64,000 nt of DNA from contig OY970393.1 of the NCBI GenBank assembly GCA_963720465.1, positions 1,632,001 through 1,696,000 on the forward strand. Reading direction: 5' to 3'. The position numbers and the translations under genes were made by a program. Under the pieces are notes generated by a model. The model searched no databases and had not been told where the DNA came from. It saw only the letters and a list, made by a program, of their open reading frames with translations. Source of the stretch: Methanobacteriota archaeon (GTDB lineage Archaea; Halobacteriota; Bog-38; Methanoflorentales; Methanoflorentaceae). Positions 6,346 through 52,089 of the stretch are shown here, in pieces (the stretch's first letter is position 1; each line of letters begins with the position of its first letter).

Positions 6346-6585
6346 TTTCTGCGGCTTTGTTATGAGGCGAAACAACAACGAGAAACGCAAGCGCCCCGTT
6401 GTGAACCGTTTGATAGATGCAGGTAGGCAGCCCTGCAAGCCTTGAGAACCTATAAGGCAACCTAATAGTTGGGTACTATAATGAGCTTTTGCTCGATGGA
6501 GCGAGATCTTGCTGCGGTGGACTTCTAACAGCTCATAGTTTGACATCGCAGCATTATAATATGGGTAATGTTCAGAGGCTAGCAT
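6338..6585 (-). pseudogene. YPxIRLP-family small ORF, copy 1 (one frameshift)
   Basis: ...KISLHRAKAHY(fs)YPTIRLPYRFSRLAGLPTCIYQTVHNGALAFLVVVSPHNKAAEKL*; near-identical in protein to 48811-49035. Confidence 0.75.
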
Positions 6586-37964: not shown

Positions 37965-38545
37965 GTCTTCTTTTGAGGAGCTCTTCCGTGGTGGCGCGCT
38001 GTCGCCGTGGTTTGATGTTTTCAGAGCAGAATCTCAATCTCTCTTAATTAGGATCAGCTTGTTTTTTCTTCATCTTAAAAGTGGTGATTGTCGGCTCGAA
38101 TCTAAGACGCTTTGTGTTCTGCTATTATCAGCAGTAATAGCGTTATCAGCCACTACACTTCTATTATCAGTGCGCTCGTGCTGATAGGACTCGTTGCTTC
38201 TGCTGCGAAGATCAGCCCACTCCATCGCTGCCCCTTTTTGACAACGCTGTGCTAGGACAGCAATCCGCATTCGGAGAATCCACGTGCTGTTCTGCTTGGT
38301 CGCATAACAACGACAAAAAGTGTAACACGACTCGCTATACCAGTTTCTTTAAAAAAGCGGGCAACTTGCGCTCCGATTAAACTTGCTCCCTCTTCAGGCT
38401 TTACATCAATGAGTTCAGTTAGCTCATAGAAATCACAGCGGCAGATGCATTCGCCCTGACTCTGTCGAAGGTCTTGGGCCGTGACGGCTTTAGGAAAAGT
38501 GAGGAAAGGGCGCTGCCACGTGCTATAGTGGGCTCCTGCAAATTT

Positions 38546-38895
38546 TCAGCAAACCGGTCGTCTCGAACCTTTTTTTCCCGTGGAATGTATATCCGAAAGT
38601 TCGTCATCGATTTTCGGCGCTACTATCCCGCTCTCCTCGAAGAGCTTGAGGAGATAGGCCTGCTTGAGGTTGATGACTAGAGCCCGCTCAGTTTGTTGTG
38701 CGACTTGAAAGAAGCTACGCATGCGGTCAGTATCTTGCTCAGGAAAGTTGACGACAGCAAGGTTGTCTGTCTTGCTGATCACTTCTGCGGACGCGTCTCG
38801 CACCGCTTCTTCACTTAAGTAGGCCGATCATTGATCCTAGTGCCTTCGCAGATGAACACCACCGGATCGACTTCTGCGGCGCGTTCAGCGAATTT
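38546..38895 (-). pseudogene. Internal fragment of an RNase J-like metallo-beta-lactamase
   Basis: KFAERAAEVDPVVFICEGTRI / SEEAVRD...VVNFPEQDTDRMRSFFQVAQQTERALVINLKQAYLL. Confidence 0.65.
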
Positions 38896-39180
38896 TTGCG
38901 TCAAGTCTCCTTTATAACCGTGGAAACGAAAATCTCCGGCATAGACGACGGAGCTGGAACTGGTATCCAGAATATAAGAGTTTGCGCCTTCGCGAGTGAC
39001 TTACTCGGAGGGCCTCACAGCGCAGGGCTCCCACAACGGACGGGTCTTCGACGCCGTGGTGCGTCCTCGGATTTTTTTTGGGTCTGCTCGCAAAAAAGGG
39101 GGGGGATAACACCCCTAACATCTGCGGGGTGCGACCCAACACAAACTGTAGCGTCCACCGACGAGATACAGATTCACTCC

Positions 39181-39846
39181 TCAACTGGGCTTAACGTAGA
39201 AGGTTGTCCGCTTGGTGCTAATGAGCTTCTGTTCGTGATAAAGGCGCGCGGTGAGGTGGTACAAGCCGTCTTCAATCGCCAAGTACTTGCTTTCGAATCG
39301 CTTTATGCCGTGTTTTTTTATGAAGTCGATATCGGTCTCGTCTATGAGCTTAACGGCTTTCGACGGGGGAGTTACGCTGACTTCGAGCCGCAGATCCGAC
39401 ACGTCGCGGTGGGCGTGCACGACCGTTTCCGTCTTGATCATCTCGTTAAGTGCCCAATAGGGCTTATTCACGAAGAACATCTGGATCTCGGCGGGATCCT
39501 CAGTGACGCGAATCTCATAAAATGGGGAGAACCAGCTCACGTAAGCACCGTCGATGTACGCCGAGACATCCAGATAGACCGATCCGGTGTGGCTCGCATT
39601 GACGTGAAAGTTGAGCACCTCCGTGTCTTGTGGGGCTAACTCTTTCACGAAATGGAACTCGCCGCTCGGCAAGACGTCGATATCGTACGAGTTGTAGGCA
39701 TACAGCGTCGCGCTTATGTCGACGAAGCGCTCCGTTGACACGTTCTTCAGCCGCACGGTAATCCAGTGGCGCCCCCGGCCGAGCACATCCGGCGTAACGG
39801 TTGCCTCAAAGGGAAAATTCCGTTTTTCATCATTCATAAACTCCAC
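39181..39846 (-). CDS. Hypothetical beta-sandwich (Ig/CARDB-like) protein
   Basis: ITVRLKNVS...KELAPQDTEVLNFHV beta-rich pattern; divergent from TetR. Confidence 0.7.
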   Translation of the reverse strand: MEFMNDEKRNFPFEATVTPDVLGRGRHWITVRLKNVSTERFVDISATLYAYNSYDIDVLPSGEFHFVKELAPQDTEVLNFHVNASHTGSVYLDVSAYIDGAYVSWFSPFYEIRVTEDPAEIQMFFVNKPYWALNEMIKTETVVHAHRDVSDLRLEVSVTPPSKAVKLIDETDIDFIKKHGIKRFESKYLAIEDGLYHLTARLYHEQKLISTKRTTFYVKPS

Positions 39847-39969
39847 TCACCTTCTGAATCTGTTTTTTTGTTGTATTCCATATTGTTTTCTCCTGGCGAA
39901 GTGCAGCAGCCAATGCGTCTCCGCGTAAGCTTCAGCAACACCTGCATTTTTATGTCGATACAAAATTAG

Positions 39970-39996
39970 TATCGATACGGTATCGTATTATATTAT
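39970..39996. promoter_or_regulatory. Putative TetR operator 1
   Basis: TATCGATACGGTATCGTATTATATTAT with an ATACG-N4-CGTAT palindrome; 25/27 match to the reverse complement of 40208-40234. Confidence 0.75.
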
Positions 39997-40207
39997 AAGT
40001 AATAAAGCTTTCGCTCAATCTCTTATAATTAAGACCCACCTACGAACAACTCATAAAAAAGTATTCAAATTAAGAATCTGGCTGCAACAGCAGAACAATA
40101 TCTCATAAGAAACACATAACTCGATGCCCTGCTTTCACTCATCACAAGAAAGAGCACAGCCTTGTTAATTTACGCACAAATTGCAACCGCAAACTATATT
40201 ACAAATC

Positions 40208-40234
40208 ATAATATAATACGATTCTGTATCGATA
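40208..40234. promoter_or_regulatory. Putative TetR operator 2
   Basis: ATAATATAATACGATTCTGTATCGATA, an inverted copy of operator 1, upstream of tetR. Confidence 0.75.
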
Positions 40235-40296
40235 TCATATATCAATGATGACTAAGCGCTTAAAAGCAAGAAAAATCGAAAGAGAACACTGATACT

Positions 40297-40935
40297 ATGA
40301 GTGTTGAAGAACCCAAACCCCCACGGCCTGTTGGCCGTCCGCGAAGCAATGAGGTGCACTCAGCCATTCTCACAGCGGCGATTGAGTTATTTGCCGAAGA
40401 GGGATTTGATGGCCTGAGCATCGAAGCGGTCGCGAACCGAGCGGGTGTGGGTAAAACGGCGATCTACCGGCGGTGGTCGTCGAAGGAGGCTCTCCTCCTT
40501 GACGCGCTGAAAGTGCTCCGCGTGGAGGTTCCGATCGTCGACACTGGGAACTTCCGTGAAGATGCAACGGCGTTTCTACGCGACACCGTTCGTGCGTATT
40601 CGCGGCAAGCCAACCGGCTGTACGTAAAAGTATGGTTGAGGATTGTTGGTGAGCTTTACGAACATCCTAACTTGTTCAGCACGCTCTATGCCCGGCTCTT
40701 TGAGGAACGCAATCGGCAGCTTGAGCTCTTGATTAGACGAGCGCAAGACCGCGCGGAGTTACGCCATGACCTTGACGCGGCGTTTATAGAGGACCTTGTC
40801 GCCGGACCAATCATCATTCACGCACTTCTCTCTTTAGTTCGATCCACACCATACACGCTCCACGAATTGACCACAATGATTGTTGACGTCGTAATATCTG
40901 GAATCGAACCCCGTTCTCAGCCTCCTTCGCCGTGA
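40297..40935 (+). CDS. TetR/AcrR family transcriptional regulator
   Basis: GRPRS...[27 protein letters not shown]. Confidence 0.94.
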
Positions 40936-41095
40936 CGTGCAGATAGGCCCATCCGGTGTGATCCGCAGAAACGTTAAAGCTGAGGTCTGTCGTTTCTTGA
41001 GGGGCCAGCTCTTTCACGAAATGATGTGAGCCGCCTGTCAGGACGTCGATGTCGTATGAGTTAAAGGGCCACAGCGTCGTGCTTATGCCGTCGAG
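40932..41095 (-). pseudogene. Fragment of a paralog of the 39181-39846 gene
   Basis: [51 protein letters not shown] vs ISATLYAYNSYDIDVLPSGEFHFVKELAPQDTEVLNFHVNASHTGSVYLDV. Confidence 0.85.
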
Positions 41096-41242
41096 ACGGA
41101 TCGTGCCAAGAAGCTGCATAAACTCTTGATCCCCTGGGACAAGCTGTCCGAGGAGGAAAAAGAAAAGGATCACGACCTCGTGCGTGGCATCCCAGACGTT
41201 TGAGCCCGGGTCGGGTTCACTATCGTCAAATCCAACACGTAG
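41093..41242 (+). pseudogene. C-terminal RyR-domain remnant
   Basis: ETDRAKKLHKLLIPWDKLSEEEKEKDHDLVRGIPDV*ARVGFTIVK fits the RyR H-x-x-L-x-P-W-x-x-L-x-E-x-E-K-x-K-D motif. Confidence 0.75.
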
Positions 41243-41251
41243 GTAGTAGAC

Positions 41252-41405
41252 ATGGCCCAATCCTCACGCACCTTTCGTGTCTTCGTCAGCTCCACGTTTG
41301 GCGACCTTATTGAGGAGCGCAACGCCCTGCAACACGAAGTCTTCCCGCGCTTGCGGACGCTCTGTCATGAGCACGGCCGCCGTTTCCAACCCGTCGACAT
41401 CCGGG
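41252..41405 (+). pseudogene. N-terminal DUF4062-domain remnant
   Basis: RTFRVFVSSTFGDLIEERNALQHEVFPRLRTLC..HGRRFQPVDIR, truncated at the usual DLRWG. Confidence 0.8.
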
Positions 41406-41763
41406 GGCAGCGGGAGAAATCATCACACGGTCGTGACGGTTTGCTTATATCGCCAGGAGATGCGTTAGTGCTCATGAGTTATTGAAGTAAATTAACGCAG
41501 AATCGGCAATGCTTGCTCGAAATGAGCCGAGCGGCTCGCAAACGCTACCAGTCCCTCCCGACTTGGGAAGGGTCTATGTATGCGATTCGGACTTTTTGGA
41601 ATGAACTCGCAGATAACGCTCCGTTTTGAGTAACCGAGGATTACTCACTACATCTTTGACTAGTTGTACAAAACTCTTTACAGCCATAACGTCACACCGA
41701 AGGCCGTTAAGCCTGGAAAAGTTATTTAAGGATCTAAAATGAACGTTTCCGCGGTGATTATGC

Positions 41764-42060
41764 ATGGTGGAAAAAAAAAGACATCCTAGTGTGCCGAGAG
41801 CTTCTGTGAGTCACGAGAAGGACGCCTACACGATCGAAGTCGAACTGCCCGGCGTGGATAAGAAAGACGTCGAATTTGAAGCCTCCAAGCACAGTTTCTC
41901 TGTCAGAGCGCCGAGAGATGACAAGAAATACTCCTGGAGCTGGCCACTTGCGCACGCCGTTGACCCAGACAAGGCAAACGCTACGTTCAGTGATGGACTT
42001 TTGAGGGCTACGCTACCGATCGTAGAACGTGAGAAAGGCGCAAAAATACCAGTAATGTAA
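41764..42060 (+). CDS. Hsp20/alpha-crystallin small heat-shock protein
   Basis: IEVELPGVDKKDV...VDPDKANATFSDGLL. Confidence 0.88.
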   Translation: MVEKKRHPSVPRASVSHEKDAYTIEVELPGVDKKDVEFEASKHSFSVRAPRDDKKYSWSWPLAHAVDPDKANATFSDGLLRATLPIVEREKGAKIPVM

Positions 42061-42668
42061 GCTTGAAACGATGGGCCCGCAAAGGGCTTGTCAATCTTTT
42101 TTTGTCTCTAGCGCAAACGCGGCGATTGCGCAGTGCTCCGTACATCCCGCCCGCGCACGTATCGTGGCTTCTGAGACTTTTGATAGTTGCTCAAGGCGCG
42201 AATATATGAGGTTGCGGCGTGCGCTATGCGCGCAAAACCTTCGGCATCGCTTTTGAGGTGTTAAGGCGGGAGATTGAAGCCTATGGCCGCGTAACGACCT
42301 TCGTTGCGTGAAAGGATTGTCAGAAGCTAGCCTTCTTGGGACGTTACTCGAGCTGTTTTAGTATCGAGTGGTATCAGCGGTCCAACTCCTTGTTCTCTGT
42401 CTTCAGTTTGTCGTTCTCCTTTTTCAGGCGTGTGCACATCACCTGTCGCAGCGCAGCGCGCTCTATTCCCTCGATGAGCACACTGCTTTTGCGTATTTCT
42501 CCTTCGTGATCTTTTTTTTCGTTGCGTAAACCTTATTGTCCCCCGTGCGCTACACGCTAATACGTAAGGCCATCGAACTATCGCGCATACATCCTTCTTT
42601 TTGCCGCCTCCGAAAATCTGGCTCCGAGAATCGCAATCGTTATGCGGAAACGACGCGGTGTAAGATGT

Positions 42669-42839
42669 ATGCGATCGATCTGCACGCACAAAATAAACGT
42701 TCAAAGCGCGAAAGCGTCGCACGCGTATCCGATTATCAGATTGCCGCGCGAGTATCGCGAACTAGCCGGTGCGGCTGCGACAATTTACAAAAACGACGCA
42801 CAATGCTGCGCGTTTCTAATCTTGTCTAAGTCGTGCTAA
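42669..42839 (+). pseudogene. YPxIRLP-family small ORF, copy 2 (truncated)
   Basis: MRSICTHKINVQSAKASHAYPIIRLPREYRELAGAAATIYK... Confidence 0.65.
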
Positions 42840-42887
42840 ATACTATGCCCGCATCTGGATATGCTCGTCAGATTCGCGGGTATTCGC

Positions 42888-42980
42888 TTATATCCATCCG
42901 GCCAGGTAGAAAGCCAAGAGGCCGAACATTAGCATGACGACTACGATTACCGCCATTACCTTGGTCTGGAGTGAGTTCAT
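42888..42980 (-). CDS. 30-aa single-TM peptide
   Basis: MNSLQTKVMAVIVVVMLMFGLLAFYLAGWI*; below the ORF-track cutoff. Confidence 0.5.
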   Translation of the reverse strand: MNSLQTKVMAVIVVVMLMFGLLAFYLAGWI

Positions 42981-43095
42981 TTTACACACTTCGCTTAAAG
43001 ATCTACTCGTGCCGTTACCTGAAAAAACATTTGCTTACGCTAGTACTACAATATCAATAGCTTAATACGAAACAAGGCTGTATATCTCGGTTTGT

Positions 43096-43518
43096 ATGCC
43101 GCTATCACGTATGTCTATCACGTTACCCGTCGAACTGTTAGACGCCATCATCAAACGTGCGGAGCGCGATAACGTAACCCGTTCTGCCCTAACGATTAAA
43201 GCTCTGACTGCCTATCTCGAAGATCGCATTGTCGAACCTGATACACAAGATAATATTGAAGTAATACGCCTGCGTGCAACCTTGCAAGGTAAAGACGAAA
43301 TTATTCACCGCGCTGACGAAACAATAGACGCATTAAGGTTAGCTTTGAATATGCGCGACTTAAAAGGCGAGCTCCGCGAGATAAAGGGCGATAAGGCGGA
43401 TCGCGACATGAAAAACTATAATTTACAATTCTTAGAAGCAAATAACAGCGCCAACGATTCTATTAAGGAAATAAAGCGCCCGAGTCGCGATTTGAACCCG
43501 AGTCGGAGCCTCGACTGA
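43096..43518 (+). CDS. Ribbon-helix-helix + coiled-coil protein ending in an antisense tRNA fragment (Int(N)-like)
   Basis: RMSITLPVELLDAI...VTRSALTIKALTAYL RHH; C-terminal KRPSRDLNPSRSLD* is the antisense translation of a tRNA 3' half. Confidence 0.75.
   Translation: MPLSRMSITLPVELLDAIIKRAERDNVTRSALTIKALTAYLEDRIVEPDTQDNIEVIRLRATLQGKDEIIHRADETIDALRLALNMRDLKGELREIKGDKADRDMKNYNLQFLEANNSANDSIKEIKRPSRDLNPSRSLD
43477..43515 (-). mobile_element. Orphan 3' half of tRNA-Asp(GTC), att-like
   Basis: GTC GA GGCTC CGAC TCGGG TTCAAAT CGCGA CTCGGGC G: anticodon, variable loop, T-arm (1 mismatch), acceptor 3' strand and G discriminator. No 5' half. Confidence 0.8.
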
Positions 43519-43590
43519 CGCAATAATAGCCACTGCGATGCTAAATGGCCTAAAAAAGGCGCTTGTGGATAAAGGCGATGTGAGCCGCGC

Positions 43591-43812
43591 TCACATCTTC
43601 TCTACCCACGTTTTCAGCGTCTTGAGCATGTCGTTTTGGTGCTCTATGTGCTTCATCTTAATTTCGTTCATTAGAACGCGCTGGTCGAGCGCCATCATCG
43701 CGAGTGCCTTTTTCGCTTCGTCGGGAAGCTTGTCCCAAATCGTCTTCATCATCATTCCGGCTTTTTCCAAGCCCTCTATATCCGGCATTGGTAAACCTTC
43801 AGGTTTGTCCAT
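43591..43812 (-). CDS. Small Met-rich helical protein (73 aa)
   Basis: GMMMKTIWDKLPDEAKKALAMMALDQRV...; 11 Met; GGAG RBS. Confidence 0.65.
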   Translation of the reverse strand: MDKPEGLPMPDIEGLEKAGMMMKTIWDKLPDEAKKALAMMALDQRVLMNEIKMKHIEHQNDMLKTLKTWVEKM

Positions 43813-43942
43813 TGTATTTCAACTCCTTTGTGACGCCTTTCACGGGCGACATTCGAGATATTCAGACTGAGGTGAAACACGTTTCCCTTTTTTTTCTACA
43901 AAAGCAATTCCAATTTTGCTTTTTTTCGCGACTCAATTGCAG

Positions 43943-44190
43943 GCTGTATTCCCCCGACTTCAGAATGTCGCCCCCTGGTCGCTGAAGCCTATGAGAAAGA
44001 CCACCGGGGTTTGGATGTGGCATTTGACGAGTTGGATCGGTCGTACTCTTCACGCGACCCTCAAAAACAGCTAGGGCCACCGCCGCGTTTCGTTTTCATC
44101 TCAACATGCACTTCGACAAGGAAGACACGCACCTCTACCGGCTTTTTCAAGGAACGCGTCCCCTTGCCCGAGCAAGGGAGGGCAGTGTGT
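43943..44190 (+). pseudogene. Hemerythrin-like (HHE) domain fragment
   Basis: Across frameshifts: VAEAYEKDHRGLDVAFDEL...TARATAAFRFHLNMHFDKEDTHLYRL / FKERVPLPEQG, with HxxxHxxxE. Confidence 0.6.
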
Positions 44191-44355
44191 CCCTATGATA
44201 GGCCGCCACACAGTTTAGATTGTCAAGGTAAATAATGAAAGCTGTCTGTTGATGGCCCTTATAATCTTATATATTCTGGCTGTCAATTTTAGCGCAGGAG
44301 CTCGAACTGCTTGGGTTCGTTGACATACGCCGCATCGGGGCCGCAAGCACGTGGA

Positions 44356-46377
44356 TCACGAAGTCTGTTGCTGTGCCTGTTCTGAGTTCAATTTGCTCTT
44401 AAGCAATTCATGCAGTTTTTCCGCACCAATGATCTCTGTATGACCCAGCTCCCATTCTGCAGGACACAGCACAAACGGCGAGCATTGGGTGCCACCTAAA
44501 CCGCCGTGACTCCCGATTAGCTCTTCGAACGCGGCGATCTCGTCGCTTTGAGGGTCGTAGAAGCTATTGACCAAGATGTCAGGCGCGTGCCGGAAGCCGT
44601 CCGTGCGCCGCAAGTGGTCAGCTGCGTGTGGGCCAAAATTAGCGAGCGGGTCCTCTCCTTCGAAATGATCGTCCCGCAGAAAGTACGTGCCGTGGCTGCC
44701 AACGATAAGAGGTCCGTGCGCATTCGATCGCACCATGACGAAACCTATCCACTCTTGCCTGATAAGTCCTGGGATGAGCAGGGGGAAGGCGCTACTAATC
44801 TGCTCGTAGCTCATGCGCTCCTGACAATCTGTGAGGTAGATCAGACCCAAATTGCCCGAAGCCAATATTATAGCCTGTGCCTCTTCACGACGCGTGGAGC
44901 GCTCTTTTTCCTTGCGTCTGACTAAGTCAACGAGTGGCGACGTTTTTTGCGTCACGTAGTCCTTTCGCTGAAGAAAGGGATCAGCTACGGCTTGGCCAAA
45001 GTGGTCTAGATTTGAGTCAAGGGCGCTATATATTTTGACCCCGTCACCCATCAAATGCCTCACTAAACTTTCGAGATCGTGGCCAGAGCGCTGCTTGAAC
45101 GTCGCGCCGTTCGCTTGGCCATGATCAGAGAGCACGACCAACTGATAAGGACGTGGCGCGTAGCCTGTCGCTAGCTCAAGTCGGTGAAACTGTTTATCTA
45201 GCTGCTTGAGTGCGCGAAGTGAGGCGCTGTCTGAAATTCCGTTGTGGTGTGCTATTTCATCGTACGCAACGTAAGTCGCATACGCCACATCGATGCGCCC
45301 CGCAATCAGGTCACCGACCAACGTATCAGTAGTGACCTCGCGCAAAAAAACGTTCGCAGCGGCGCGGGTCAAGTAGTAAATAAAAAGCCCCTTGATCAGG
45401 CGTGGCTTCACTCTGAAAACGAGTTGCCGCACGCGACCTACGAACTCTTCGAAGATGTCCCAGAAAAAAAGCGCGATAATACGCGGGATGTTTGAGGGGT
45501 TTGAGTACAAATAGAGCCATGATTTGGTGTAGAAGTGCCTCATCTCCTTCAATCGACTGAAGGTGAAGATATTGTCTGCAGCGTCTCCTGAAAAGAGATT
45601 TGTACGGCTCGCGCCGTTTTTTACCAGAAGCCCCCGCCTATTCGAAATTCGCGTTTCGATTTCAGGCGCGTCAGAGAGGCCCGTCGATACCATGATTCTG
45701 TTGCCGTGTTCTTTTTCGACCCACCGAAATGCTGGAAGATCTTGGTTATGTCCGTGCAAGATGCCCGCTTGGCTGGCGCCGGTTTGACTGGACAAGTCCG
45801 TTTCCCACGGGGTAATGCTATGGCTTCCACTCGCGAGCCATTTGGCGAGCGTCGGCAGGTATCCATTGTTGATCGCTCCGCGAAGTACCGATTCAGCAAG
45901 GCCGTCGATCTCCAAGAATACAGTGCCTTTGCGCTCTGTCCGAATCGCTCTTACGGTCTTCTTGATCTCTCTGCGTAGAATGTTGCGGTAATACCACGCA
46001 TCATCGTTGTTTGTAAGCAGGCTAGCGAGAACTACGTTAATCGCTGTTAACCCCATCGCCGTCAAAACAAGGGCAAGTCCTTCGACGCTGGCGCCTGGCA
46101 CCAGCTTGCTTGTAAACCAAATTAACAACGCATTGAGCAGCAGCACTCCTATTCCAAAGGTGTACGTCAAGAACCGCAGCGTCGATTGCGTCAATATCGG
46201 CCACAGAAGTGCGTTAGCAATTCCTAGAACCACTACTAAGGCGAGTGCTGCGGCAAAACTGTTAAGGCTCAGTCCTGGAATCACGTGTGCCAGAAGTGTG
46301 AGGCCGGCAGCTTCGCCGACCCACACTACGAGCGTACGATACAAGAAACGCCAATTGCGTTTCGTTTTGTCTTCCAT
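44356..46377 (-). CDS. 4-TM 'phage holin 4_2/DUF360' domain fused to an alkaline-phosphatase-superfamily phosphodiesterase
   Basis: N-terminal ANALLWPIL...TFGIGVLLLNA; FLEIDGL, SQTGASQAGILHG, YDEIAHH, LSDHGQ, GSHGGLGG. Confidence 0.85.
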   Translation of the reverse strand: MEDKTKRNWRFLYRTLVVWVGEAAGLTLLAHVIPGLSLNSFAAALALVVVLGIANALLWPILTQSTLRFLTYTFGIGVLLLNALLIWFTSKLVPGASVEGLALVLTAMGLTAINVVLASLLTNNDDAWYYRNILRREIKKTVRAIRTERKGTVFLEIDGLAESVLRGAINNGYLPTLAKWLASGSHSITPWETDLSSQTGASQAGILHGHNQDLPAFRWVEKEHGNRIMVSTGLSDAPEIETRISNRRGLLVKNGASRTNLFSGDAADNIFTFSRLKEMRHFYTKSWLYLYSNPSNIPRIIALFFWDIFEEFVGRVRQLVFRVKPRLIKGLFIYYLTRAAANVFLREVTTDTLVGDLIAGRIDVAYATYVAYDEIAHHNGISDSASLRALKQLDKQFHRLELATGYAPRPYQLVVLSDHGQANGATFKQRSGHDLESLVRHLMGDGVKIYSALDSNLDHFGQAVADPFLQRKDYVTQKTSPLVDLVRRKEKERSTRREEAQAIILASGNLGLIYLTDCQERMSYEQISSAFPLLIPGLIRQEWIGFVMVRSNAHGPLIVGSHGTYFLRDDHFEGEDPLANFGPHAADHLRRTDGFRHAPDILVNSFYDPQSDEIAAFEELIGSHGGLGGTQCSPFVLCPAEWELGHTEIIGAEKLHELLKSKLNSEQAQQQTS

Positions 46378-46384
46378 TGACGTT

Positions 46385-47233
46385 CTATCCTGCGCAGGCT
46401 AAAGTAAAAATCGTGATCTCAGGTGGGCAATTAACCCGTAACCAGAGCACGTTGGTGCCGAGGCCGCGACTTGTGTACTGGACCATGTCGCCGATTTGAT
46501 ATCGCCCTAGCGGGTATTTCCTGGCGTGCGGCGCTCGCACCAAAGTCCCGATACCAGGCATGATGAGTTGCCCGCCGTGCGAGTGACCCGATATCTGCAG
46601 GCTAAATCGTCCCGTTGTTGCGCTAACGTCGGCGAAATCTGGTTCATGAGCCAACAGAATCGCGGGGCCCGACGGCGGAAGTTTGGCGAGCACAACGTCC
46701 AAGCGATGTTTGTTGAGCATAACGCTATCGACGCCGGCGATGTGCAACGCTGCGTCCCCTCGACGCACCGAGTGAACGTCATTGCTCACGTCGAGGATAT
46801 CGCTGCGTCTCAGTATCTCTCGCACCGCTGCCTCGCCGACCCAGTGGTCGTGATTCCCAAGGACCGCGACGCTTACGTCCTTTGGACATAGCCTGCTCAG
46901 TGATCGCACCATTTCCTCCGAAAGCCGATCAACCTCGTACGAGAAGAGGTCACCGATAATGGCGACAAGGTCAGGTTGCTGCTCGTTGATCAGGCCAACC
47001 ACGCCGTCGAAGCGCGCAGGGCTGATCCACTGGCCTAAATGGATATCGGCGATGCTGGCGATCTTATACCCGTCGAACGCTGCGGCCAAGTCAGGAATAG
47101 TTACAGACACCGGCTCGATTTGAAAGGCGCTCGGCTCGAAGCGATCGCTGCCTATCTTTTCCGACAACCTCGCCATTGTAAGCTGTAGATTTCGCCTGAA
47201 GGCGCGATGTCGCGTGTAGCGATGCCTCTTCAT
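46385..47233 (-). CDS. Metallophosphoesterase (YkuE-like)
   Basis: ADIH, GD, GNHD, AHEPD, SGHSHGGQ, SRGLG. Confidence 0.9.
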   Translation of the reverse strand: MKRHRYTRHRAFRRNLQLTMARLSEKIGSDRFEPSAFQIEPVSVTIPDLAAAFDGYKIASIADIHLGQWISPARFDGVVGLINEQQPDLVAIIGDLFSYEVDRLSEEMVRSLSRLCPKDVSVAVLGNHDHWVGEAAVREILRRSDILDVSNDVHSVRRGDAALHIAGVDSVMLNKHRLDVVLAKLPPSGPAILLAHEPDFADVSATTGRFSLQISGHSHGGQLIMPGIGTLVRAPHARKYPLGRYQIGDMVQYTSRGLGTNVLWLRVNCPPEITIFTLACAG

Positions 47234-47502
47234 TGTTCTGTTTCTCTGCTTGTGGCTCGTCAACTTCATAGAGCAGTGTTTCATGTGATAAGCGCATTTT
47301 AAGTTTTTTTGGTTCTTGGCGCGCAGGGACGGGACACGCAACACGAAAAATGGGATTGGTTTCACTCGATGGCATCTGAAAGAGTTTTAGCCGTGGTGTT
47401 TGAAATTTACCAGTGCATTTCCTACGAAATCTGCTCCCAGTTATTGGGCGGTGGCTAACTCGTTAGCTGGCGACAAAGCGGAACGCTCGCTAAAAAAAGG
47501 CG

Positions 47503-47579
47503 TTAAAGCAACCCTGAAAACAGGCGCGAGATTGACTCTCTCAGCTTGATTGCCACACTTCGGCTCACATAGCGTTCTG
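47503..47579 (-). pseudogene. 3'-terminal remnant of a second cardiolipin synthase gene
   Basis: ERYVSRSVAIKLRESISRLFSGLL* vs the cls end ERYANRSVIIKLKESIARLFSGLL*. Confidence 0.85.
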
Positions 47580-47766
47580 CTTCCGTTGTTTATCGTCAGA
47601 TTATGATTTGTTGTGGTTTTATAGATGCTGGCGTTAAGCTTCGGCTGATAAGACGTAGTGGAAGCATCAGCCGTGAAGCTGCCGCACAGAACTATCTTTG
47701 TAGATTTCGAGCACGGAAATAGCAAGCTTTTCTGCGTCGTGTGCACACATCACCTGCTGCAACACG

Positions 47767-48417
47767 TCAATGATCTGGCGAACGATGTGCTCTAACGCGT
47801 CTCGCAACCGTATAAAGTGTGAATATGACAGGCACAAGAACGAATACTAAAAAACTTCCTGCTGGACTTATAAAAGAAACCATAATTGCTATTATGGCCA
47901 AAACTGGCAATGAAAGGTTCGATCGCCTGATGAGGTCGGCATAAGGCAGCACTTTCTCAGCTACGAACCCCTTTTTCCAGGCATAAGAGCAGTTAGCGTA
48001 CCATAAAAGACCTATAATAAGCATGTTTACATCAAATATGACTTGTGCAAGCTGGAATTCACCATATTTACCAATAATTGACGTAGAAAATGGCACAATG
48101 GCAATTGACATGAGCCAGAGGATATTTATCCAGAGAAGCGTGGTGTTGCTGTGTTTTATTATGTAGAATAGGTGATGATCCATCCAAAAAACAGCCAGAA
48201 GGATGAAGCTGATAACGTAAACGAATATCTGCGGCAGAATACTTGTAACGTACGCGCTGAACGCAGCGGGAGTTACGGGGGCTTGTAGTGTGGGTACTGC
48301 GATACTCAAAACCAGCAACGTCATAGCTATGGCAAATATCCCATCTGTTAGCTGTTCAATTCTGCCCGTAGGAATTTTCAGCGCGGGTATTTCGTACCGG
48401 TGCATCGGCAACTGCAT
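47767..48417 (-). CDS. TMEM175/DUF1211 family ion channel
   Basis: RIEQLTDGIFAIAMTLLVL, YVISFILLAVFWMDHH, PFSTS. Confidence 0.9.
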   Translation of the reverse strand: MQLPMHRYEIPALKIPTGRIEQLTDGIFAIAMTLLVLSIAVPTLQAPVTPAAFSAYVTSILPQIFVYVISFILLAVFWMDHHLFYIIKHSNTTLLWINILWLMSIAIVPFSTSIIGKYGEFQLAQVIFDVNMLIIGLLWYANCSYAWKKGFVAEKVLPYADLIRRSNLSLPVLAIIAIMVSFISPAGSFLVFVLVPVIFTLYTVARRVRAHRSPDH

Positions 48418-48474
48418 GTAAATTCTATCGGCTTAAAGTTGCGGATTTGATGTGAAGGGCAGGGGAAGCCAATA

Positions 48475-48694
48475 ATTAAAAAAATATTTACTACTAAGAT
48501 ATCGCCTCAATCGTCCAATCCCACGTTTTGTTATCCAATCATTCGCTTGCCGAGACAGCTCAAAGAGCTGGCAGACATTTGCAAATATCTATCAAACAGA
48601 GATTGACGGCGTTCAAGGGTTTTTCGTTGCACTTCAATTAGACAAATTACACAAAAGCGTGGAAGGTACGGTTCAGGATGATCAAGAGCTATAA
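48475..48694 (+). pseudogene. YPxIRLP-family ORF, copy 3 (start lost, one frameshift), reading toward the tRNA fragment
   Basis: IKKIFTTKISPQSSNPTFCYPIIRLPRQLKELA(fs)ANIYQTEIDGVQGFFVAL...QEL*; the frame continues KAPIDQKRLKNQWARPDSNRRPP through the antisense tRNA. Confidence 0.7.
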
Positions 48695-48730
48695 AAAGCT
48701 CCAATCGACCAAAAAAGGCTAAAAAACCAA

Positions 48731-48777
48731 TGGGCTCGGCCGGATTCGAACCGACGACCTCCGCGGTGTGAAGACGG
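48731..48777 (-). mobile_element. Orphan 3' part of tRNA-Val(CAC), att-like
   Basis: CCGTC TTCACAC CGCGG AGGTC GTCGG TTCGAAT CCGGC CGAGCCC A, followed by a T-run; D-arm and acceptor 5' strand absent. Confidence 0.85.
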
Positions 48778-48810
48778 AGGATTCTGAGCTTTTTTAGGTT
48801 TTTCGTTACG

Positions 48811-49035
48811 CTAAATAACAACAAGAAAGGCGAGTGCCCCGTTGTGCACTGTTTGAAAGATCCTTGTTCGTAGCCCTGCAAGCATAGAGAACTTGTAGGG
48901 CAGCCGAATCGTTGGATAGCTGTAATCTGCTTTTGCGCAATGAAGCGAGATCTTGGTTTCGTGAACTTCGAGTAGCGCGTTTGTGTAGGGTCGCCGCGCA
49001 CCGTAATGTAATGGATAAGATTCGGCAGTTATCAT
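48811..49035 (-). CDS. YPxIRLP-family small ORF, copy 4, reading toward the tRNA fragment
   Basis: MITAESYP...LLEVHETKISLHCAKADYSYPTIRLPYKFSMLAGLRTRIFQTVHNGALAFLVVI*. Confidence 0.72.
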   Translation of the reverse strand: MITAESYPLHYGARRPYTNALLEVHETKISLHCAKADYSYPTIRLPYKFSMLAGLRTRIFQTVHNGALAFLVVI

Positions 49036-49594
49036 AATGGTGAAGAGGTTCACGCAGAGAGTTTAATCGTTGTGATTTGCACCGGGGCGTAGGCGAGTTT
49101 AGCGCTAAGGAAGATGTGCACTCAAATCACACCCTTTATCGGCTCTGCTTCTGCTTTTTAGGCGCGAAATCCTTACCGAGGCATGGAGTTAAATAATGGT
49201 TGATTGGAGCTCCGTTCTCGCAGCCCTATTGAGTGTCGGCGTGGGCACTGTCGTGACATATGTTGCGGCAGTGCGTTTAAACGCAAGCGCAAACAAACCA
49301 CTGGCTTCCCAGTGAAGATATCCGGACCACGTGCGATTGTTTCAGAACAACGGAAGCTTTTTAGACTGCTAACGTTCTAGTGAATATATTTGAGCGTTTC
49401 ACAACGTGTGCGGCACAGGCTTTGGCTCGCCTCGAGCGAACTAGCTACTTCAACCCCTTGCTCGTGAGTGCGCCGTTCAACGAAGGCCCCGCAAGAGACT
49501 CTTTCTTGAGCTGGCGGCGGCGTACGAGGCCAATACAAAACCGCAGCCTGACCAAACTCAGACGCGGATTCGAAAAATTGTCGAAATGACCAGC

Positions 49595-50995
49595 CTAGTA
49601 CAAGAGAGTGAGGTTCTCCTTGCCCTTTGCGCCTTCTTCTCGCTCAGCTTCTGACTGTTCGAGGCTTTGGTACGCCTTCATTACGTCGCTGAAGAGCAGC
49701 TCCACCATATCTCTGCTGAAGTTCTCCTTGATGACCATCCGCATCACGGCGACGTCCTGGGCGTTCTCGGGAAGATAGTATGCAGGCACGATCCAGCCTT
49801 CTTGCCGGAGCTTATCGGACAGCTGGAAGACCGTGAAAGGTGCATCCTTCAAACGAAATGCCACGAGAGGGAGTGTTTTTTGTTTGTTGATGATCTCAAA
49901 CTTGCCGGTATCGTTCAATTTTTCGGCGAGGTAATGGCCGTTGTTCATCATGTTCGTCATAATATCGGTGTAGCCGCTTCTGCCCAGCCGAATGAAGTTA
50001 TAGTATTGCGCGATAATGGTGCTGCTACTCTTAGAGAAGTTGAGCGAGTAGTTCGTCATCTCTCCTCCCAGGTAATTAATACGGAACACCAACTCGTCAG
50101 GGAGATCGTTTTTATCCTTCATGACGAGCCACCCGATGCCGGGGTAAACCAGGCCATATTTGTGCCCCGACGCGTTGATTGATCTCACCTGTTCGAGCCT
50201 AAAGTCCCATTCGAGATCGGGCCGGACGAACGGTGCGACAAACGCGCCGCTTGCCCCGTCGACGTGCAGGGGTATATCCCAGCCTTTCGTGTTCTTTATG
50301 TTAACGAGCAGGTCGTTGATCTCCTTGATCGGGTCCATCTGTCCGGTAAAGGTAGTACCGAGAACCGCGGCGACGCATATGGTATTTTCGTCAACTTGGG
50401 CAGCTACTTCATCGGCGCTGATAACGTACGTGTCCTCTTGGAGTGGAATCAGCTTCAGTTCGACGTCGAAGTAGCGGGCGCTTTTCTCCCACACCGTGTG
50501 GACGTCCGCCCCCATCACGATATTCGGGTTGTCGCACTGCTTTCCCTCTGCCTGTCGGCGCTTTCTCCAGGTCCACTTGTACGCTAACACAGCGAGCATG
50601 ATAGCCTCTGATGATCCTATGGTCGCAGTCCCGACGGATTCGCAGTCTTCAGGAGCGTTGAACAAGCGGGCTAGCATGTTTACCACGCGTTCCTGTATGA
50701 TTGTAGTCTGAGGGTACTCATCATTGTCGACGTAGTTCTTGTCGAGGCTTTCCGCGATGAGCTGGTTCGCCTCCGGCTCCATCCACGTGGTGACAAAGCT
50801 GGCAAGGTTTAGCGAGGGGTTTCCATCGAGGTTCAGCTCATCGTGAATGAGCTGGTAGGCGGCTTGGGCAGGCATCCCATTGTCAGGCATTACGTATTTC
50901 GGCACCGGTTCGCCGAAATAGCGACGGCCGTATGCCGTGGTGTGATCTGTCTCCGATTCTTTCTTCGTGCTTAGATCTACCTTCTTTGATAACAT
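49595..50995 (-). CDS. gadB: Glutamate decarboxylase (PLP-dependent)
   Basis: [44 protein letters not shown]. Confidence 0.94.
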
Positions 50996-51288
50996 GAAAA
51001 TCTCCTTTTTGCATTAGAGCGGTCTTGTCTTTGATGGGGAGAACCCCCTCAGTTTCAGTCGAACGCTCCTGAGTCTGCCGTTTTCAATTTCGACTTAGCT
51101 CGAGCGCGTCCACGACCGTCGGGCAGAAAGTATAAACCGTCTTGCTTGTTAAGGTTTTTTGGTGTTTCCAGCGCCAATATTTAGGGATTCGACCTGACAA
51201 ATCAAAACGAATGTGGACGGGAAAAACGGGTGGGAGCGTTCACCTCCATATACGAGGATCCTAGTCTCTAGCTTGCTGCCTGAGGGTC

Positions 51289-52089
51289 GTGTATGCCTTA
51301 ACGGAAGTATCGTCTATGACAAGTGAGCTCCTCGAGGAGTCAGATCGATTCCGCGCAGCGCTGACGTCACGCGCACGGCGCAAGCGTTACTCGCATCTAA
51401 ACGTCGATCGTGGGTCGACGCTGTGGGCGCCACGCGCAATCGGCTGGTGGATTGGCATTTTGTTTGCGGTAGGATCTACCTGCTTCGCGGTAGGCGCTCT
51501 CCCTGCATATCTCTCGGCGGTGGGTCCTGAGGCTGATGCACTCACTTTCTTTGTCGGATCCTTATGGTTTACAAGCGCTGCATTCCTGCAAGTCGTGGAG
51601 TCGGCAAACGTCGATGACATTGAGGGGCAACCTGAAGTTTCGTCCAGAATTCGCCTATTGGCGTCGTTACCGCGTCGAATTGACTGGTGGGCGACGATCG
51701 TGCAGTTCGCAGGTACGCTGTTTTTCAACGGCACGACGTTCAACGCTTTGCGTGCCAACCTTACGACACATCAGCTCAATCGGCTCGTTTGGGCGCCAGA
51801 CGCGTTTGGCTCGACGTGCTTTCTTATCGCAAGTGGGCTCGCGTGGTTTGAAGTGTGCCGCGCGGTCAGCTGTTGGCGATTGCGAAGCCTGCCGTGGTGG
51901 ATCACGGCCCTCAACCTGTTGGGCTCAATCGCCTTCGGCATCTCTGCAGTCGCGTCGTTTGTGTTGCCGACGACGGGTGTTCCGATAAACGTCGCTCTCG
52001 TAAACTTGGGCACGTTCGTGGGCGCGGGGTGTTTCTTCATCGGTGCGGTATTGCTGCTGCCAGAGCGCACGCAAACTGATTCTAATTGA
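51289..52089 (+). CDS. YrhK-like multi-TM membrane protein
   Basis: WWIGILFAVGSTCF, FFVGSLWFTSAA, QFAGTLFFN, WAPDAFGS; start may be 51316. Confidence 0.75.
   Translation: MYALTEVSSMTSELLEESDRFRAALTSRARRKRYSHLNVDRGSTLWAPRAIGWWIGILFAVGSTCFAVGALPAYLSAVGPEADALTFFVGSLWFTSAAFLQVVESANVDDIEGQPEVSSRIRLLASLPRRIDWWATIVQFAGTLFFNGTTFNALRANLTTHQLNRLVWAPDAFGSTCFLIASGLAWFEVCRAVSCWRLRSLPWWITALNLLGSIAFGISAVASFVLPTTGVPINVALVNLGTFVGAGCFFIGAVLLLPERTQTDSN

Follow-up and report, generated by a model that had tools for sequence, protein, structure and literature searches.

In terms of integrases that divide their own gene on integration, suicidal integrases are known from Sulfolobales, Thermococcales and Archaeoglobales, with five more from Methanosarcinales; all of these carry PF16795, the hallmark of three families, and a single origin has been proposed for them, as far as the excerpts of PMC8371274 and PMC7253208 go. 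The same excerpts present self-splitting integrases mainly from hyperthermophilic archaea, and an excerpt of Krupovic et al. 2019 (PMC6563490) mentions one split SSV1-like integrase in a thaumarchaeon. Searches of the literature gave no description of a self-splitting integrase with a ribbon-helix-helix (RHH) or AbrB head; the supplementary integrase tables of these papers might list members. The present analysis concerns a 64,000-nucleotide (nt) stretch of DNA from a Methanobacteriota archaeon, called the window (positions 1632001–1696000 of a single-contig genome of 2.31 Mb with a guanine-cytosine content of 51.7%), and within it an open reading frame (ORF) of 140 amino acids (aa) at 43096–43518. 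This ORF is probably the orphaned N-terminal half, Int(N), of an archaeal tyrosine integrase that has its tRNA attachment site (att) inside its reading frame; the C-terminal half of such an integrase is referred to as Int(C). A sequence-only reading of the window, made from its letters and translations, had proposed an Int(N) of this kind with an RHH head. Coordinates are those of the window unless they are marked as genome positions or belong to a named locus.

The ORF ends in an antisense tRNA-Asp fragment

The ORF and its att are placed as follows.

43096–43518, plus strand: 140-aa ORF of Int(N) type, with a putative RHH head, a long helix, a linker and an att-encoded tail closed by TGA
43476–43515, minus strand: att, the 3' part of tRNA-Asp(GTC) from the first anticodon base to the 3' end, 39/40 identical

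The C-terminus of the ORF reads KRPSRDLNPSRSLD followed by the stop, and the sequence-only reading had taken these codons for the reverse complement of a tRNA-Asp 3' half, proposing a comparison with the host tRNA. The comparison bears this out: the genome holds a single tRNA-Asp(GTC) gene (genome 347125–347198), and its linear positions 35–74 match the minus strand of the att at 39 of 40 positions (blastn-short, E = 3e-14). It is likewise confirmed that the similarity stops at the anticodon with the stop codon next to it. The match begins at linear position 35, which is the first anticodon base; the base preceding the anticodon is A in the window copy versus T33 in tRNA-Asp; and the TGA at 43516–43518 follows immediately after the att. 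The sole mismatch (C to G) disrupts one T-stem pair. ARAGORN calls no tRNA in the window and Rfam calls none in window 38000–52000, which identifies the tRNA-Asp piece as a fragment and not a gene. Contigs of two other studies bridge the junction 43515/43516 at ~98–99% identity, one (X5 record 10) spanning 42769–43872 and the other (X7 record 19) spanning 43378–44011; the junction is therefore not an assembly artefact, and the arrangement is common to close strains.

Relatives of the ORF abut intact tRNA genes

A word-indexed protein search with the ORF yielded 39 relatives at E ≤ 0.01, 36 of them below 1e-15, mostly 139–148 aa in length and 60–97% identical, and 31 of the 39 were aligned with the query (32 rows). 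The tail RPSRDLNPSRSLD is carried by 21 of the 32 rows, the window included. Sixteen of these 21 tails run on as DRA..., the reading into the anticodon stem of an intact tRNA-Asp; two end like the window, two continue as (M/S)LG..R before a stop, and one (P0013) continues as DRSY. Ratios of nonsynonymous to synonymous substitution rates (dN/dS), taken pairwise over 10 copies, are 0.19 for the RHH head, 0.27 for the long helix and 0.77 for the linker. By these measures the ORF is a member of a real, conserved gene family of ~140 aa and is under purifying selection.

Conservation extends to the DNA in front of the gene.

43020–43095, plus strand: conserved, promoter-like 5' region of the RHH gene, with palindromes in relatives that are degraded in the window copy

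Across the loci L015–L032, the ~75 nt 5' of the ORF start are conserved and contain two short palindromes, CGATATCG and GATAGTATC, positioned between a TATA-like stretch and the start codon; it is these two that are degraded in the window. The palindromes are candidate operator sites for the predicted RHH dimer.

That the overlap with the tRNA reflects a chance ORF or an assembly chimera is barely conceivable, as nothing beyond the small size of the ORF speaks for it, and a tRNA match at E = 3e-14, a conserved family with the signature of purifying selection and independent contigs across the junction all speak against it.

Related loci were examined at 27 places (L015–L041), several from near-identical strains and hence not all independent. 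At 7 of the 27 (L015, L024, L025, L026, L029, L030 and L032), the RHH ORF abuts an intact tRNA-Asp in antisense, the attL position; at 11, it lies with the tRNA 3' part alone, which starts at position 32–34; and at one (L033), the RHH head is found at an intact tRNA-His. The remaining loci have a slipped att (3/27) or no detectable tRNA piece (5/27). In the same-genus genome G019, a 71%-identical ORF abuts an intact, identical tRNA-Asp in antisense, the order tRNA-Thr/Gly/Asp being kept at the RHH ORF locus, and decayed remnants of Int(C) and att lie 1.3–1.7 kb (att remnant 2.0 kb) and ~9.4 kb beyond the ORF. Homologues of the ORF do adjoin tRNAs and integrase domains, a point on which the sequence-only reading had made its proposal depend.

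Split integrases in the host genome

When all tRNAs were compared with the genome by BLAST, many fragments were found far from the genes, mostly 3' parts starting at positions 23–35. About 30 small ORFs of the genome carry the motif YPxIRLP, and many of them run into tRNA fragments; about a dozen copies of an ORF family of ~300 aa lie ~200 nt from tRNA fragments. At tRNA-His, an ORF with the YPxIRLP head (genome 2277124 to 2276606) runs in antisense into the intact tRNA and ends KSKAEGEIRTRVVASTGP. Some 22 kb from this tRNA, a 370-aa open frame (genome 2298613 to 2297501) begins with the same KSKAEGEIRTRVVASTG, for which a copied tRNA 3' part provides the codons, and continues stop-free through the att copy into the ~300-aa family, which is Int(C). 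The tRNA-His pair bears the signature of an integrase with attP inside its ORF that is cut in two on integration.

The same architecture is found at tRNA-Asp. Here, an Int(N) (genome 347542 to 347147) shares its frame with the window ORF and ends KKERPSRDLNPSRSLDRAP, an Int(C) (genome 365976 to 364846) reads a slipped att copy in that frame too, and a further Int(C) at genome 387 kb reads the att in a second frame, APESGFEPESEPRQ. In a third kind of element, the tRNA 5' part and its upstream flank are read in sense (genome 329679 to 330953).

Integrated elements lie on both sides of the tRNA-Asp gene in the region 326–387 kb of the genome (L001–L004). Upstream is a 17-kb element whose att consists of the tRNA 5' part (1–40) and at least 60 nt of upstream flank, in sense. 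Downstream are two tandem elements, one of which ends at the slipped att at genome 365863–365887, where 18 nt were lost between two GACTCGGG repeats, and the other at genome 387178–387219. We considered whether the second tRNA-Asp element had lost its Int(N) to the window, and rejected this, as the Int(C) of that element uses the second frame and the window ORF the first.

The sequence-only reading had called the other head AbrB-like. This label found no confirmation: four N-terminal pieces with the YPxIRLP head and two full-length proteins were compared with Pfam, and none had a match even at E ≤ 10. The model of the head has two strands, residues 27–34 and 37–44, at low predicted local distance difference test (pLDDT) scores.

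Int(C) is a tyrosine recombinase by predicted fold

Neither as a single sequence nor as a 72-sequence profile does Int(C) have a match in Pfam, NCBIfam or the PDB. PF16795 (Phage_integr_3) has no match in the whole genome at E ≤ 0.01, and it is not listed at E ≤ 1 for an uninterrupted integrase frame from a related locus, L032:1–1308, for which PF00589 (Phage_integrase) has no match either; the protein P0121 reaches 16.2 bits against PF00589, under the curated cut-off of 27.1. Int(C) is matched by PHROG 216, 'integrase', at E = 1.2e-4.

The AlphaFold model of L032:1–1308 has pLDDT above 90 over most of residues 130–400 and in the C-terminal domain. A Foldseek search of the PDB with this model gives Tn1549 Int, lambda Int, XerA and Cre at E values of 1.6e-5 to 1e-3 with probability 1.0, and the list, which includes XerH and the integron integrase, extends to E = 4e-3. 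The search has 21 matches at E ≤ 0.001, and almost all of those listed are tyrosine recombinases; the SSV1 integrase is a weak match, at E = 0.9. Candidates for the catalytic set R-K-(H)xxR-H/W-Y can be named from 72 sequences: R290 and K322 do not vary among them, whereas R382, H405 and Y415 are each conserved in at least 90%, with G at the first H of HxxR; the spacing of R290/K322/R382/H405/Y415 is one that we take to resemble that of lambda Int. Judged by its modelled fold, Int(C) is a tyrosine recombinase with a core-binding and a catalytic domain.

At E ≤ 1e-5, the protein collection contains 522 members of the Int(C) family, and none of the 120 listed has a precomputed Pfam domain. Several relatives are named 'integrase' by the Joint Genome Institute or are assigned by NCBI to 'Halobacteriota archaeon' metagenome-assembled genomes (MAGs). 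Of 401 genomes sampled from the phylum, 45 contain the family, as do 22 of the 23 other genomes of the host's family; in a first-look screen, as many as 78 candidate stretches were scored in a single genome.

Heads and tails are exchanged

Two further features connect the window ORF to the YPxIRLP-headed integrases.

43419–43475, plus strand: pre-att linker LQFLEANN...KEIK, common to YPxIRLP-headed integrases
42642–42839, plus strand: remnant of a YPxIRLP-type head, directly 5' of the RHH gene

L032:1–1308 and P0069 are uninterrupted ORFs composed of the YPxIRLP head, the tail LQF(I/L)EANN, att and Int(C). The YPxIRLP head is found on the identical first-frame tail, LQF(L/I)EANN..KRPSRDLNPSRSLD, in P0037, P0038, P0069 and L032, and the RHH head is found on three tails: the first-frame tRNA-Asp tail of the window family, its second-frame counterpart (P0019) and a tRNA-His tail (P0021, P0034 and L033). 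These combinations show that heads and tails combine freely and that such integrases swap unrelated DNA-binding heads, much as the sequence-only reading had supposed.

In the window, 43419–43515 matches the tail of the L032 integrase (L032 219–315) at 84% DNA identity, and 42700–42769, within the remnant that lies 256 nt upstream of the RHH ORF, matches its head (L032 2–71) at 80%. The ~650 nt between the two matches, comprising the promoter region, the RHH head and the helix, have no counterpart in L032. Window 42700–43515 is colinear throughout with L029 77–792, and L029, which lies beside an intact tRNA-Asp, has the same order of head remnant and RHH ORF. Because a YPxIRLP remnant still lies upstream, the RHH head appears to have entered an integrase gene with an earlier head; that is, it looks as if an RHH cassette was inserted into an integrase gene that already bore a head.

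The RHH head and its relation to Int(C)

The N-terminal part of the ORF comprises two predicted features.

43108–43218, plus strand: putative RHH DNA-binding head, residues ~5–41, from sub-threshold hidden Markov model (HMM) matches and structure models
43252–43362, plus strand: long helix, residues 53–89, a predicted parallel coiled-coil dimer in structure models

A two-copy model of residues 1–100 has an interaction prediction score from aligned errors (ipSAE) of 0.52 versus 0.00 for the best control, with runs that agree in at least 93% of contacts and a partner pLDDT of at least 80, a mark that 20 of 30 solved pairs attain, as against 1 of 23 single chains. Residues 4–9 of the two copies pair as an antiparallel N-terminal ribbon, and the long helices form a parallel coiled coil with contacts 59:59, 70:70, 73:73, 77:77, 80:80 and 84:84. 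As RHH dimers are well represented among solved structures, the model shows likeness only, not binding.

The relation of this head to Int(C) is best seen at locus L032. Here, the RHH ORF lies at the tRNA and the uninterrupted 436-aa frame, YPxIRLP head–LQFIEANN–att–Int(C), lies 9 kb away. By the standard logic of tandem arrays, the Int(C) at this locus would belong to an element whose Int(N) is the RHH ORF, and since the two use the same att frame, excision would give one RHH–att–Int(C) ORF. L032 is the one related locus in which an RHH Int(N) is accompanied by an Int(C) in a compatible frame, and it is the best, albeit indirect, support that the arrangement of these genes seems to offer for a fusion of the RHH head and Int(C).

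Several observations weigh against an RHH-headed integrase. As regards the head, all HMM matches fall on residues 4–44 and lie below the curated cut-offs of Pfam and NCBIfam: RHH_5 (E = 0.021, 15 bits versus 26), RHH_1 (E = 0.082, 13.3 bits versus 20.5) and YlcI/YnfO_N (E = 2.9e-5, 24 bits versus 30). The monomer model, with helices 12–25, 29–41 and 53–89, is poor, with a mean pLDDT of 53.5. As regards the fusion, no uninterrupted RHH–att–Int(C) ORF was found by a word search for proteins of 246–2000 aa; an exhaustive search of 1.84 billion representatives gave 14 matches, none longer than 144 aa; phmmer found no RHH head in the 120 listed of the 522 Int(C)-family proteins; and among 24 genomes of the class, 4 have the RHH head, which nowhere adjoins an Int(C) match. 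A scan of viral contigs for RHH–att–Int(C) gave 35 pattern matches, of which 0 were confirmed. Where Int(C) does lie behind RHH–att on the same strand (L016, L017–L023, L031, L040 and L041), it is out of frame and mostly deleted. The cargo between the RHH Int(N) and Int(C) of L032 (GYD, RDD, flavodoxin, DUF4386 and others) is without hallmark mobile-element genes.

The out-of-frame loci were considered as a shared frameshift that would favour separate translation, and this was rejected, the out-of-frame Int(C) pieces being open in the second att frame, APESGFEPESEPRQ. This frame is also used by the integrases P0050 and P0052, by the RHH-headed Int(N) P0019 and by the host genome's own copy at 387 kb. 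The pieces may accordingly mark places where different elements have been joined. Different integrases read the tRNA-Asp att in two frames, RPSRDLNPSRSLD and APESGFEPESEPRQ, so that junctions in a tandem array can be in or out of frame according to the elements that meet there.

From the dimer model, together with the sub-threshold HMM matches, the N-terminal head is likely to be of RHH type. Of the Int(N) reading itself, the attL position and the tail and frame shared with full-length integrases hold up. The full-length RHH–att–integrase homologues for which the sequence-only reading had called were found in none of the searches, and because no intact RHH–att–Int(C) ORF was found, we infer the translational fusion from L032.

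The same evidence bears on whether the RHH ORF is instead an independent small CopG-like gene, encoding a repressor or directionality factor, whose 3' end merely overlaps the att and which is never translated as part of the integrase. Such a gene would account for the missing fusion, and it fits with an ORF that is intact in most loci at dN/dS of 0.2–0.3 beside decayed Int(C) neighbours, with an upstream region of its own that is conserved and palindromic like those of autoregulated RHH genes, and with an integration that alters the last few residues only, which the protein would survive. Set against this, the linker and att frame are those of the uninterrupted integrases L032 and P0069, the ORF occupies the exact position of an Int(N), its three att tails parallel the Int(N) tails of the YPxIRLP head, and a YPxIRLP remnant lies directly upstream. 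We consider an independent gene unlikely and favour an Int(N) origin of the ORF.

The window copy and its flanks

The window copy is a relic that keeps the promoter region, head, linker and att and is without Int(C) and an adjacent tRNA 5' half. Three features follow the att.

43574–43946, no strand assigned: unrelated DNA past the att boundary, 67% identical to genome 1304206–1304573
43941–44186, plus strand: fragment of a multi-copy gene of ~216 aa
44186–44244, minus strand: diverged tRNA-Asp 5' piece, D-arm region, 18/20 by manual count, with a promoter-like AT-rich upstream stretch

No Int(C) was found anywhere in the window, in agreement with the sequence-only reading, which had held both Int(C) and the tRNA 5' half to be missing. 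The second part of that statement needs amendment: the 5' half is displaced or decayed and not simply absent, since a diverged tRNA-Asp 5' piece lies 0.7 kb further on, with homologues in L037 and L024. In L037 and L024, the tRNA-Asp 5' piece lies 47 nt from the tRNA-Asp 3' part with a hairpin-like insert between them. The att boundary in the window falls within 1–2 nt of the boundary in bona fide att copies, a coincidence that suggests recombination at the att edge rather than random deletion.

A 73-aa ORF on the minus strand (43591–43812) lies within the segment that is paralogous to genome 1304206–1304573. Full copies of the ~216-aa gene, which we take to be hemerythrin-like, are present at genome 1704231–1704881, 714469–715116 and 802193–802987, with further copies in four same-genus genomes. 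The HSP20-like and phosphodiesterase flanks (41404–42431 and 44342–47313) are 69–76% identical to same-genus genomes. In G018, the 17 kb between the flank counterparts map at 82–90% to genome 1753173–1772702 of the host, which points to a duplication or rearrangement around the ORF locus. The corresponding stretches of G018 and G019 contain no tRNA or integrase pieces, and from synteny with these two genomes no clean pre-insertion site is definable.

The state of the window copy raises the question of its present role. It could be a stranded copy that the host or island has kept as a free-standing RHH regulator, a role that would not conflict with descent from an Int(N). In favour of it, nothing is lost from the ORF, its start or its upstream region, contigs of two other studies show the arrangement again at 98–99% identity, and the protein P0001 is 97% identical. 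The upstream palindromes of the relatives are degraded in the window, however, and the differences from P0001 are mostly amino-acid changes, and retention as a regulator is, in our estimate, quite improbable.

A second tRNA target had been claimed ~5 kb from the first, and it is indeed present.

48731–48773, minus strand: second att-like piece, tRNA-Val(CAC) positions 32–74, 95% identical

This piece sits between two facing YPxIRLP-head ORFs, 48451–48606 (plus strand) and 48811–49062 (minus strand), and is read in sense by one and in antisense by the other, with no Int(C). The facing arrangement recurs at genome 1277699–1278313, likewise far from any tRNA-Val gene. Another copy of the YPxIRLP head, with an internal stop, lies at 6374–6532 on the minus strand (genome 1638338–1638532). 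When introns are allowed, ARAGORN calls 'tRNAs' with introns of hundreds of bases, for example at genome 747219–747795 and 2112483–2113724; integrase heads or att fragments lie within at least some of them, which appear to be false calls.

Proposed mechanism

The free element would carry a single gene, driven from a promoter ~75 nt upstream and made up, in order, of RHH head, dimerising helix, loosely constrained linker, attP and Int(C); the attP would be 13 codons that read the tRNA-Asp 3' half in antisense. On recombination with the tRNA-Asp of the chromosome, this gene would be divided: Int(N) would stay beside the regenerated tRNA, running antisense into it (...SLDRAP and stop), and Int(C) would come to lie at the other end of the element, preceded by a copied tRNA 3' half. 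Crossover would take place in the anticodon loop. The 5'-type att extends to linear position 40 and 3'-type atts begin at 33–35, which would place strand exchange in the shared 6–8 nt around the anticodon, with which the crossover around the anticodon in the SSV1, pTN3 and pT26-2 integrases agrees (excerpt of PMC8371274). The dimeric RHH head would bind DNA near the att or its own promoter and might join two catalytic protomers. In the window relic, unrelated DNA takes the place of the tRNA 5' half at the att boundary.

Comparison with known systems

Taken as a whole, these integrases may constitute an undescribed, PF16795-negative self-splitting lineage, very abundant in one mesophilic archaeal class and maybe with an independent origin of the att-in-gene design, in which heads of unrelated fold are exchanged by cassette insertion into int(N) and RHH Int(N) halves stay alive as regulators, for example as repressors or immunity factors acting at the att or at their own promoter. 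We put this forward tentatively, as a possibility. The att-inside-gene design is found here in a family of recombinases for which sequence profiles give no connection to known self-splitting integrases. The combinations of heads and tails, the remnant of a replaced head included, picture a reshuffling of target-site choice and DNA-binding modules. If RHH halves do function alone, integration would turn an integrase gene into a regulator gene. The many att copies, dispersed as they are, also suggest that genome rearrangement in these archaea has a strong source in them.

The closest parallel is with the SSV1-type integrases (type I, suicidal, including those of pTN3 and pT26-2). As the excerpts of PMC8371274 and PMC7253208 describe them, these share with the present family an attP inside the ORF that splits the gene into int(N) and int(C), a tRNA 3' part as target with an identity boundary at the anticodon loop, and tandem integrations with mixing of int(N) and int(C), for which a chimeric-integrase model has been published. 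In contrast to SSV1-type integrases, the present family is without PF16795, has no sequence-level match to any solved structure and is closer in modelled fold to Tn1549, lambda and XerA (~1e-5) than to SSV1 Int (E = 0.9). Rather than in hyperthermophiles, it occurs in a small class of 'Halobacteriota' MAGs that come from soil, peat and freshwater sediment, and its N-terminal heads are of different predicted types and are exchanged. Given the lack of PF16795, the family is not filed as an SSV-type member, though it works like one.

In its architecture, the family resembles the heterobivalent integrases lambda Int and Tn1549/Tn916 Int, which are its best fold matches and in which a core-binding and catalytic body is joined by a linker to a separate N-terminal DNA-binding domain. 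In lambda, Tn1549 and Tn916, however, the att lies outside the gene, the gene is unsplit and the N-terminal domains are not RHH. The head itself is reminiscent of the RHH regulators CopG, Arc and MetJ, with a predicted N-terminal strand and two helices and a predicted symmetric dimer with a paired N-terminal ribbon; it differs from these in HMM scores that lie under the cut-offs, in the ~37-residue predicted coiled coil that follows it and in a tail taken from the antisense strand of a tRNA.

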